The notes: generated by a model from the letters alone, not told the origin. Positions 24,288 through 60,858 are shown, counted from the stretch's first letter. The stretch is 64,000 nt of DNA from Selenomonadaceae bacterium (GCA_963598415.1 CAVBUH010000073.1:131669-195668), one strand, 5' to 3'. Numbers and translations: made by a program.

Positions 24288-24441
24288 ATCTTAAATATAG
24301 TGATTGCAGTAAAAATGCGACGGCGCTTTTCCAAAGGGTTTGGGGATTATGCGGCGCTTAACGAAAAAAGATAAACCCATATTTTCGTGTCGATATTATG
24401 CAGTATCCCCTAAAATGCAACAGTCGAGGGAGGTTGTGCAA

Positions 24442-36923: not shown

Positions 36924-37787
36924 TTACACTTTATCTTTGTCGTAAACGTCGTATTCGTCCCATATTTTTTCGAGTCGGCTGAATACATCTTCAAGCTCAG
37001 TCTGTTTTTTGCGAGACACTGCCACGATAAGAGCGTCGATTATGCTGAGAGGAGCGACAAGGGAATCAACAAAGGACGCCATATCACTTTTGGCATAGAG
37101 CTTTGAATCGGCATAAGGCGCGATCGGAGAGCGGTCGCTGTCGGTGAGAGCGATGATATGCGCTTTTTGCGAACGTGCATATTCAACGGCACTGATGATC
37201 CGTTTTGAATAGCGGGGAAAGCTGATTGCGATAACCGCATCTTTATCGGATACACGCAGGAGCTGTTCAAAAACCTCGCTTCCGCTTGTGGTCTGTACGA
37301 GCGATACGCGTTCAAACATGAATCGGAAATTAAATGCGAGAAAATTTGCTAAAGACGCTGAGCTTCTCATTCCGATTATATAAATCTTGCGTGAGTTCAT
37401 AAGCGCGTCTACCGCACTGTCAAAATCCTTTCTGCTTACGCTTTCAAGGGTGGCGCGTATTTTGGAAATATCGGAATTGAGAACGCTTTCCAGTACGTCT
37501 CCGTTTCCGATCCGATCATTTGTTACCTCCATACGCTGAACAGGGGTAAGCTTCATTCTGATCAGCTCCTGAAGAGCCGTCTGAAGCTCCGGATAGCCTT
37601 CAAAGCCGAGAGCGGAGGCAAATCTTACGACGGTGGACTCGCTGACGCCTGTTACTTCTCCGAGCTTTGAGGCAGTCATAAAGGCCGCTTTATCGTAATT
37701 GGCGATGAGATAACTGCCGATAGATCGCTGTCCTTTTGAAAATTCCGGGATCATGTCTTTTATTCTGTCAAGAAGATCGTTTTTCAT
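36924..37787 (-). CDS. MurR/RpiR family transcriptional regulator
   Basis: HTH_6-like N-terminus (QRSIGSYLIANYDKAAFMTASKLGEVTGVSESTVVRFA) plus SIS domain. Start at ATG 37787 after GGAAGG. Confidence 0.88.
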   Translation of the reverse strand: MKNDLLDRIKDMIPEFSKGQRSIGSYLIANYDKAAFMTASKLGEVTGVSESTVVRFASALGFEGYPELQTALQELIRMKLTPVQRMEVTNDRIGNGDVLESVLNSDISKIRATLESVSRKDFDSAVDALMNSRKIYIIGMRSSASLANFLAFNFRFMFERVSLVQTTSGSEVFEQLLRVSDKDAVIAISFPRYSKRIISAVEYARSQKAHIIALTDSDRSPIAPYADSKLYAKSDMASFVDSLVAPLSIIDALIVAVSRKKQTELEDVFSRLEKIWDEYDVYDKDKV

Positions 37788-37959
37788 ATGCCTTCCGCTT
37801 ATCATCGAAATCAGATGAAAGCCCTCCGTTTGTGATGGTTTATGAATCGGACTTTGCCGTTTCCTGCAATTTGAGTCTGTTATTACGCAAAAAAATACAC
37901 GCATAACCGGATATGCAGGCTGAAGCGGTATATCCTTCATAATGCGAATTATTATCTCA

Positions 37960-37988
37960 ATTATAGAGTTAAAAATGAAATTTGTCAA
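37960..37988 (-). promoter_or_regulatory. sigma-A promoter for the RpiR-family gene
   Basis: Minus strand perfect TTGACA-17 nt-TATAAT. 5' UTR of about 165 nt. Confidence 0.65.
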
Positions 37989-38028
37989 GAGGCGGAATGA
38001 ATATTCGGGAAATGAATCAAAAAATAAC

Positions 38029-38351
38029 GGGCTGTTGCGTTAAGCAACAAGCCCGGCATCTTCCCGGTTGGGAAACCGGGAAGATGCCGAATCGGGTGTT
38101 TTTGACTGTATTTTCTTTGGATTATTATGAATTTAAATGGTCAAAATTACGGATTTCATCCGCAAAACCCGACTTCGTGGGGCAGTCGCACTAACGTGCT
38201 ACTGCCCCTTGATCCTGCATAAATGGGTTCGTATGAATTTTATTTTGTATCCGAAAACAGAAAATATGACAATTCGGCATTTTCATCAACTGCCGCTGTA
38301 AGAGCATCAAAGCCAGATGTGAATTGTGAAAATTCCGCAGTATTGCCTTAA
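38029..38351 (+). repeat. composite element: 154-nt Z module plus TTAAGG-repeat right terminus
   Basis: 38029..38182 differs at only 6 positions from 60616..60769 in my hand alignment. It ends ...CCGCAGTATTGCCTTAA at 38351. Confidence 0.8.
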
Positions 38352-38635
38352 GCTCTGAAATTATAACCGCAGTCATGGCAGTAATAAATCCTTTTGTGGT
38401 TTGAAAACCATTTTTTAGCCTGCCAAACATGACCTTTACCGCTTACCTTATGTATAATCGCCATCCACCAATCATAAAAAATAAAAACCATAAATCCGAT
38501 CATCCATTTGATCATCAACCATAGAAAGTACCAAATCCCAAATAATATCAAAAATAAACATCCGTGTTTACTTGATTCATTTGAAAGCTGTACTTTGGTG
38601 CTGCCGCATTTCGGACATTTTTGATTGATCGCCAT
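38348..38635 (-). CDS. small zinc-ribbon membrane protein
   Basis: 95 aa. CPKC ... CHDC cysteine pairs flank two hydrophobic helices. GGGAGGA RBS 10 nt upstream of ATG 38635. Confidence 0.55.
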   Translation of the reverse strand: MAINQKCPKCGSTKVQLSNESSKHGCLFLILFGIWYFLWLMIKWMIGFMVFIFYDWWMAIIHKVSGKGHVWQAKKWFSNHKRIYYCHDCGYNFRA

Positions 38636-60519: not shown

Positions 60520-60858
60520 TTAAGGCATACCGCACAATTACCTGCTTGCATATTTTCCGACATTCGTCACAAAAAATAACGCAATAGGAGCCGCTATTGC
60601 TTGTATTTTTTGTGCGGGCTGTTGCGTTAAGCAACAAGCCCGGCATTTTCCCGGTCAGGAAACCGGGAAAATGCCGAATCGGGTGTTTTTGACTGTATTT
60701 TCTTTGGATTATTATGAATTTAAATGGTCAAAATTGCGGATTTCATCCGCAAAATCCGACTTCGTGGGGCTGTTGTCGCACGTTAGTGAGACTGCCCCCT
60801 GAATCCCGAAAAATCTGACGGCGCATCTGTACTGTCATAACCGGCGGTATTGCCTTAA
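60520..60858 (+). repeat. composite element: TTAAGG termini enclosing the Z module
   Basis: Left end TTAAGGCATACCGCACAA, internal GGGCTGTTGCGTTAAGCAACAAGCCC and GGCATTTTCCCGGTCAGGAAACCGGGAAAATGCC hairpins, right end CCGGCGGTATTGCCTTAA. Confidence 0.8.

Follow-up and report, generated by a model that had tools for sequence, protein, structure and literature searches.

A hairpin-ended miniature element, probably of the IS1182 family, dispersed at gene ends in a human-gut Oscillospirales genome

IS1272 and TnSha1, two staphylococcal elements of the IS1182 family, always insert into hairpins, delete part of the target and generate no duplication of it (Furi et al. 2016, PMC4923244). From a different direction, template switching from one arm of an inverted repeat to the other has been described as a process that homogenises the arms, makes compensatory changes and inverts the spacers between them (PMC8794818, PMC8604942), and functional rRNA very rarely shows loop inversion (PMC8794818). 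Both sets of observations can be brought to bear on a hairpin-rich repeat, here termed Z, that occurs twice in a 64,000-nt stretch (the window) of an uncultured human-gut Oscillospirales genome (GCA_963598415.1, CAVBUH010000073.1:131669-195668): copy A, at locus A, really spans 38028–38208, and copy B, at locus B, 60615–60798. Z is probably a non-autonomous miniature inverted-repeat transposable element (MITE) of 173–184 nt that belongs to, or is mobilised by, an insertion sequence (IS) of the IS1182 family. As such, it represents a new family of MITEs, of a known type but with an uncommon mode of insertion, and three of its features are unusual, i.e., this insertion mode, inverted repeats that are themselves palindromic and a core structure conserved across genera.

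A preliminary description of the two loci had recognised a two-copy module of 154 nt with six mismatches. The near-identity stands, as 38029–38186 and 60616–60773 align without gaps at 95.6–96% identity, whereas the count and the end do not: there are seven differences over 158 nt, and the unit extends on to a right terminal hairpin, H4. This hairpin reads GGGGCAGTCGCAC-TAAC-GTGCTACTGCCCC in copy A and GGGGCTGT(TGT)CGCAC-GTTA-GTGAGACTGCCCC in copy B, and the earlier alignment stopped short because of this inverted loop and the 3-nt insertion in copy B. Nor is the module confined to two copies. Searched by blastn against the whole assembly (3.88 Mb, 210 contigs), it gave 73 matches, of which 40 are full length and many are shortened by contig ends, and a count of conserved motifs gave 57–62 copies in the genome, the CysS protein of which shares 82% identity with that of 'Firmicutes bacterium CAG:272'. 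Z is thus a four-hairpin repeat, of which the genome has about 40 complete and about 30 partial copies, set in unrelated flanks. The 40 full copies set its ends as (C)GGGCTGTTGC ... GCGAC(T/A)GCCCC, and about 30 copies have these identical, sharp boundaries within unique flanks, a diversity that points to independent insertions. It shares with MITEs a small size, the multi-copy and dispersed state, sharp common boundaries and the lack of coding capacity, a conserved open reading frame (ORF) being ruled out by an 8-nt insertion or deletion between copies. When longer elements with the same ends were sought, the partial matches proved to be deletion variants, contig ends or a single rearranged copy. 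In the latter (C40:22893-23132), positions 1–124 stand in one orientation and positions 121–181 are inverted and displaced about 60 nt upstream, a layout found also in another strain (L126). On another contig (L114, from ERZ1106954), the non-repeat parts are 83–88% identical to the genome and a deletion variant of Z is about 96% identical to Z; either Z is more conserved than the host genome or it has moved between sister species.

The sites occupied by Z suggest how it inserts. No regular target-site duplication, be it TA, TTAA or a longer direct repeat, accompanies it; among about 30 independent copies, two are bordered by TTAA on either side, which in these cases belongs to the target palindrome. 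The flanks show a preference for A at position -2 (23 of 40 copies) and for T at +1 and +2 (22 and 30 of 40, respectively). Many copies lie no more than 90 nt from the stop codon of a gene, and on crude ORF calls the contexts of 46 copies comprise 19 between convergent genes, 9 tandem and co-oriented, 11 tandem and anti-oriented and 7 divergent. In four repeat contexts, Z sits exactly where Z-free paralogues have the apex of a hairpin: CTTAA-GCCCTTCTTTCAAGAAGGGC-TTAAG is found as CTTAA-Z-TTAAG, and AAAAAAGCA-GCCGCCATGCGGCA-TTCAGAGC as AAAAAAGCA-Z-TTCAGAGC. At solo copies, the flanks are not more palindromic than mismatched flank pairs (mean best stem of 4.0 vs 3.5 nt; no difference). A hairpin-replacing mode of insertion would account for the lack of duplication, the AA-Z-TT flanks, the gene-end sites, the replaced hairpins and the nesting in a hairpin-rich MITE that is considered below. 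Among the targets of Z are at least two further repeat families, one with a CTTAAGCCC..GGGCTTAAG hairpin and one with the long palindrome GACAAGTCAAAAA...TTTTTGACTTGTC (C62:2900-3300, C23:35500-35770, C73:126010-126290; C41:38700-38960, C78:1834-2024, C29:121426-121619).

An IS1182-family partner is found on a contig of the same species (L113), the first 125 nt of which are identical to the end of contig C64. On it, hairpins H1–H3 of Z are followed by the gene for a 541-aa transposase that scores 349 bits with the IS1182-family model NF033551 (cut-off 270) and contains the Pfam domains DUF772, DDE_Tnp_1 and DDE_Tnp_1_6. Public assemblies contain the identical protein in 4,701 indexed blocks and in many gene contexts, and the IS of about 1.9 kb (L113:216-2069) appears to be extremely widespread in human-gut bacteria. 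Its ends, as defined on 11 loci (L113 and ten with the exact protein, L184–L193), give the layout 5'-GGGGCTGTCGCAC-TAAC-GTGCGGCAGCTC ATTTTATATATCC...tnp...GGGCTGCCGC-(20 nt)-GTGCGACAGCCCC-3'. At the ten loci, it has no target duplication, an A-rich left flank and a T-rich right flank. The perfect 13-bp inverted repeat of this IS, GGGGCTGTCGCAC, constitutes both arms of H4, and the right end of Z matches 13 of its 13 positions in the T variant. The insertion mode can be read from a pair of sites: the empty one (L205), between atpC and a convergent gene, is AGCAAAAAAA-GGACGTGTGAAAAAACAAATTCTTTTCACACGTCC-TTTTTACAG, with a 35-nt terminator hairpin as its middle part, and the filled one (L212) is AGCAAAAAAA-IS-TTTTTACAG, such that on one long-read contig the bidirectional terminator hairpin of atpC has been exactly replaced. 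This transposase or a close relative probably moved Z. In the present assembly, no intact IS1182-family transposase is encoded (NF033551 remains below its cut-off, and tblastn finds an 88-aa fragment of 47% identity); metagenome-assembled genomes (MAGs) can generally be expected to lose IS copies, and most of the relatives are MAGs. As for other movers, a search of the genome with DDE_Tnp_1 (PF01609) retrieved IS5-like pieces only, IS110 (PF01548) is absent from it and no multi-copy transposase ORF turned up in it; a search for the IS91 Y2 domain (PF04986) was uninformative, its control having matched nowhere.

The module had further been described as packaged inside TTAAGG termini. At locus B such termini do stand on both sides, and 60520–60858 (plus strand) is a composite of Z and an IS5-type TTAA MITE, with TTAA at 60520–60523 and 60855–60858, the termini GGCATACCGC...GCGGTATTGCC and a 24-nt internal deletion in the left arm of the MITE. 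This second MITE has a TTAA duplication, GGCAATACC-type inverted termini and a polymorphic insertion. At least ten copies of Z carry the same MITE flanks as locus B, and members of the same subfamily that are free of Z exist at about 95% identity (C7:54705-54845, C7:116805-116945, C65:10355-10495); hence, the composite arose from a single entry of Z into one MITE copy and multiplied afterwards. The composite is mobile as a unit: the TTAA at 24291–24294 of the window is an empty target, at which a conspecific metagenome contig (L123) holds GGCAATACCGC...Z...GGCGGTATTGCC with the TTAA duplicated on both sides and flanks 99–100% identical to the window. The earlier suggestion of a recently active composite element is thus borne out at locus B by a subfamily of at least ten copies and by this filled and empty pair, and the module seemed packaged because a Z-bearing MITE had been amplified, probably by an IS5-type transposase. 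Strains also differ at locus B by internal deletions, others holding the full composite. Four (L091, L093, L094 and L096) have a 78-nt mini element that consists of the termini alone (TTAAGGCATACCGCACAATTACCTGCCAGCGCCTTGACAGCGCATCTG...GGTATTGCCTTAAG); as this and the allele of the window are not one deletion apart, both descend from a full composite ancestor. A different variant of Z lies between identical flanks in L100, and in L128 and L092 the left flank of locus B is joined to a different composite copy.

Two simpler accounts bear on the same material, namely, that the two loci belong to a segmental duplication or that Z is cargo captured by the TTAAGG repeat, in either case without mobility of its own. 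Locus B and the other copies that travel inside the IS5-type MITE are what such accounts predict, but the copy census refutes them, given the roughly 30 copies in unique flanks, the Z-free members of the MITE and the entry or abutment of Z at no fewer than three different positions of the MITE; they can be regarded as extremely improbable. As most copies of Z lie outside any TTAAGG element, Z must be a repeat in its own right, which has come to be nested in another. With this, and with ends that match those of an IS1182-family IS, the idea of a terminator or small RNA (sRNA) carried as cargo by the TTAAGG repeat is likewise not supported.

The structure of Z is best followed in copy A (plus strand, 181 nt, long form), which was delimited by the 40-copy alignment, scores 214.7 bits with R1, a covariance model built from the 40 genomic copies, and has exactly the same sequence in strains L101 and L103. 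The left terminal hairpin H1 (38029–38054), GGGCTGTTGC-GTTAA-GCAACA(A)GCCC, has a 5' arm that matches 9 of the 13 positions of the IS repeat GGGGCTGTCGCAC, and it precedes H2 as had been reported (GGGCTGTTGC-GTTAA-GCAACAAGCCC). H2 (38055–38088), a perfect palindrome of 14–15 bp, is GGCATCTTCCCGGT-TGGGAA-ACCGGGAAGATGCC and varies among the copies between a long form, a short one that lacks 8 nt and loop-flipped forms. Next comes a central branched domain (38089–38178) with the helices GAATCGGGTG/ACCCGA-CTTC and TTTTGACTGT/ATGGTCAAAA and with H3 (TTACGGAT-TTC-ATCCGCAA, 38147-38165). The right terminal hairpin H4 occupies 38179–38208, each of its arms being the 13-bp IS1182-family inverted repeat, and among the copies its loop is of the GTTA type in about 37 and of the TAAC type in about 17. 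Copy B (plus strand, 184 nt; 201.4 bits with R1) has a long H2, GGCATTTTCCCGGT-CAGGAA-ACCGGGAAAATGCC (60642–60675), with the consensus stem of the family, and a GTTA-loop H4, GGGGCTGTTGTCGCAC-GTTA-GTGAGACTGCCCC (60766–60798), with a TGT insertion. The whole element folds very stably, with z-scores of -12 as RNA and -14 as DNA.

The compensatory double substitution in the 14-bp stem of H2 is real: a T-A pair has become C-G in locus A (38060 and 38083), the stem has remained intact, and two further differences between the copies fall in the loop, all as initially described. Among the 40 aligned copies, this pair (35-58) is UA in 39 and CG in one, i.e., it is unique to locus A. By a rough count, copy A has five substitutions relative to the family consensus, and two of the five would hit partner positions and keep the stem paired with a chance of about 1–2%; two independent hits are therefore unlikely. 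The pair is weak evidence for an RNA. The alternative that would build on it is that Z is primarily a structured RNA that serves the host as a mobile terminator or insulator, a stabiliser of 3' untranslated regions (UTRs) or an sRNA, with its hairpins maintained, and compensation arising, through selection on that RNA. The stability of the fold speaks for this alternative. Against it, loops flip freely, and they do so on unchanged stems: H4, the longest perfect palindrome, is flipped in about 17 of 54 copies (31%), H2 in about 8 of 55 (including the GT/AC apex of the short form) and H1 in 3 of 57 (to TTAAC), with no flip in 57 for H3, which has a stem of 6–8 bp. One stem position of H4 occurs as A-T, T-A, A.A and T.T, each of them with either orientation of the loop, and H2 occurs with and without an 8-nt tandem duplication.

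Pairing within the genome also counts against the RNA alternative, with 95.9% of cells paired against 95.6% in column shuffles. Changes on both sides of a pair number 15 cells in H2 and H4 and none in H1 and the central helices (Fisher p = 3e-5), and the latter hold 63 uncompensated mismatches. New G.T and A.C mismatches are about equal (about 46, i.e., 192 counted minus four consensus G.U pairs, vs 52). The alleles of orthologous copies in different strains differ mainly inside Z, e.g., by a long as opposed to a short or flipped H2 at C7:192948 and by GACA..TGCC as opposed to the compensated GACA..TGTC at C40:23009. As the double changes are restricted to the two long palindromes, in which loop flips occur as well, compensation suggests template switching at the DNA level rather than selection on RNA. 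The locus-A pair is accordingly read as a one-step copy from arm to arm in a 14-bp palindrome and not as RNA evidence. Selection at the level of the element for intact inverted-repeat hairpins is a likely second contribution.

Sequence features that would mark a terminator or an sRNA also argue against the RNA alternative. A scan of 37900–38400 against Rfam, with E-values up to 10, returned chance-level matches only, none of them close to a gathering score, and Z has no orientation bias relative to its tandem flanking genes (the 9 co-oriented and 11 anti-oriented copies noted above). The T-runs reported to follow the hairpins on the minus strand exist at locus A alone, where the run belongs to the flank, and the element encodes no U-run of its own. 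A candidate internal promoter, TTGACT-N18-TATGAA, was not called by a promoter scan and is not conserved in other genera.

More can be said for a functional RNA when relatives of Z in other genera are considered. Searches by blastn in 40 relatives, with an exact 26-mer in GTDB genomes and in plasmid and phage collections found no Z, and the homologues were reached by the covariance model only. Applied to 150 other genomes of the same GTDB family, from 97 genera, it recovered full-length and strongly diverged homologues in 11 genomes (11 genera), and it recovered them in one genome of another family as well; all have the ends AA-GGGGC...GCCCC-TT. In a cross-genus alignment of 35 sequences with an eight-helix plan, 62 of the 72 pairs change on both sides, and pairing reaches 93.4% as against 68.2% in shuffles and at most 47% with the partners slid, figures that are upper bounds for an alignment fitted to the structure of the model. 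The eight-helix plan, present in at least seven genera, is clearly conserved while the sequence turns over, and there are two explanations for such an interior, namely, a requirement of transposition or long-term conversion between arms. The RNA alternative can further draw on an excess of G.T over A.C mismatches across genera (75 vs 32), on the slightly better folding of the plus strand and on the GC-rich terminal hairpins that stand beside resident A and T tracts. Set against this are the fitting of the alignment to the structure and the capacity of arm conversion to give covariation without selection. All told, a primarily host-functional RNA is unlikely, and the IS1182-type MITE remains the preferred interpretation.

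In a related genus (G079), the terminal motif AAGGGRCTGTYGCA occurs about 100 times per strand, often as solitary and perfect 34-nt hairpins with an A-run and a T-run on their sides, right after stop codons (e.g., L152, L154, L156 and L157), which is a further point that the RNA alternative may claim. These hairpins resemble minimal elements in which the two inverted repeats have been joined and which occupy former terminators. They also bring to mind a third possibility, that Z resembles REP/BIME or REPIN elements and was moved by a Y1 transposase (RAYT or IS200/IS605-type) that recognises hairpins. The all-hairpin build, the two homologous terminal palindromes, the lack of target duplication and the modest strand asymmetry in folding would all fit such an origin. 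It is, however, largely refuted and retains very little probability: the Y1 domain PF01797 is absent from the genome itself and from G079, G066, G155 and G118, six of the 11 Z-bearing genomes lacking it; where Z-bearing genomes do have Y1 genes, no Z-type hairpin stands beside these; the palindromes have no conserved GTAG or CGTC tag next to them; and the arms are the repeat of a DDE-type IS1182-family element.

Several observations weigh against an IS1182-type MITE as the explanation of Z. The left end is the weaker one, its 9 of 13 matches rising to 11–12 of 13 in other genera, R1 matches the ends of the IS weakly (about 23 bits), and the interior of Z is not visibly derived from the IS. The junction on L113 could be an insertion of the IS into H4 of a Z copy rather than a mark of common descent. 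No IS1182-family transposase was found in the representative genomes of the other genera with Z-like elements, and with the enzyme absent from these and from the assembly, it remains a presumed mover of Z. Two insertions lie away from a hairpin apex, i.e., the progenitor of the composite, which stands in a T-run 13 nt after a hairpin, and the copy on C69, which stands at a MITE terminus. No presence or absence of a solo copy was found among strains; every solo site recovered is filled, and the solo copies therefore look fixed or static. The covarying eight-helix fold exceeds the needs of a MITE and may point to an additional function, and the strain alleles inside Z come from metagenome assemblies, in which paralogous copies may be mixed.

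The observations can be assembled into a tentative history. The ends of Z are GC-rich hairpins built from copies of the 13-bp repeat GGGGCTGTCGCAC, with H2 and the branched core between them. IS1272, of the same IS family, cuts into DNA hairpins, typically those of intrinsic terminators, deletes them in part or entirely and inserts without duplication; by this mode, Z would have come to lie mostly at the 3' ends of genes, between the A-tract and the T-tract left over from the terminator, and also in the hairpin apexes of other repeats. One Z landed in an IS5-type TTAA MITE, the composite then probably being amplified by an IS5-type transposase and remaining polymorphic among strains, and at locus A, Z has as its neighbour the right half that is left of such a MITE. 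Solo copies now look static, with their change dominated by events in the palindromes, presumably conversion among copies and template switches from arm to arm. Such events would account for flipped loops, for the gain or loss of 8 nt in H2 and for mutations that are copied into the partner arm, the C-G pair of locus A being one case. The terminal hairpins may in addition restore termination, and Z as a substitute for the deleted terminator hairpin is a reasonable idea. A bolder version, which is possible but doubtful, holds that Z and the G079-type hairpins are selfish terminator mimics that swap in a GC-rich hairpin of their own, which would restore termination and make the insertion almost free of cost. 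The eight-helix core could then be functional, either as folded single-stranded DNA in transposition or as an RNA domain of 3' UTRs.

The surroundings of locus A preserve traces of this nesting. As had been noted, the locus keeps the right MITE terminus alone: at 38265–38351 (plus strand), alignment with the right halves of other MITEs identifies what is left of an IS5-type TTAA MITE, namely, a degenerate right half whose terminus is ...GCAGTATTGCC, with TTAA at 38348–38351; the left half is missing. Copy A lies about 55 nt to the left of this remnant and may, on inserting, have deleted the left arm of that MITE's long hairpin. The placement of locus A 3' of a small membrane-protein gene is correct, though partial, as the copy also lies 40 nt upstream of the next gene's promoter, i.e., between the 3' end of the membrane-protein gene and a perfect sigma-70 promoter (TTGACA-17-TATAAT, 12/12; 37960-37988, minus strand) that lies 40 nt to its left and faces a gene for an RpiR/SIS-type regulator (36924-37941). 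In contigs from several independent samples (L102, L108 and L112), the polA flank of another copy (C43:126475) is joined through Z to the window from 38209 onward. These joins and those at locus B (L128 and L092) are either real repeat-mediated rearrangements among strains or recurrent assembly chimeras.

In light of this, part of the dense repeat content of an uncultured human-gut Oscillospirales genome can be explained by two MITE families of different chemistry that are nested and in part move as a composite. The replacement of terminator hairpins by the IS1182 family, until now known mainly from IS1272 in staphylococci, gains independent sequence evidence from gut Clostridia, and this mode of insertion can evidently give rise at gene ends to MITEs in high copy number and to solitary inverted-repeat hairpins. 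For RNA discovery, the case is a caution: in mobile DNA that is palindromic, template switching between arms can produce compensation and even strong covariation, loop inversions being the tell-tale. In practical terms, Z elements break assemblies, many of them lying at contig ends, and they appear to mediate rearrangements between strains.

Placed among known systems, Z is closest to IS1272 and TnSha1, with which it shares insertion into hairpins and terminators, partial or complete deletion of the target and the lack of duplication, the staphylococcal elements having little sequence specificity and inserting in either orientation (PMC4923244). The partner IS described here is likewise of the IS1182 family by NCBIfam and replaces a terminator hairpin exactly. 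Z differs in being a 181-nt non-coding derivative rather than an IS or a gene-carrying transposon, in its host, a gut Oscillospirales bacterium, and in ends that are perfect hairpins of the inverted repeat. Like other bacterial MITEs (e.g., Correia/CREE, RUP and the IS5-type TTAA MITE of this genome), it is small, non-coding, multi-copy and intergenic, has termini that match an IS and takes part in nesting; unlike them, it makes no target duplication, targets a structure and has a covarying multi-helix interior and palindromic terminal repeats. With the REP/BIME and REPIN-RAYT systems, it has in common high-copy palindromes at the 3' ends of genes and two related hairpins with spacers, to which the solitary hairpins of G079 may be added, but it lacks a Y1/RAYT gene and the GTAG/CGTC tag, and its arms are the repeats of a DDE transposon. 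Finally, its compensatory pairs, loop inversions and extensions and contractions of stems, confined to long inverted repeats, parallel the template switching known from quasipalindromes (PMC8794818, PMC8604942), with the difference that in Z such events have occurred at high frequency across about 60 mobile paralogues rather than in single-copy RNA genes.

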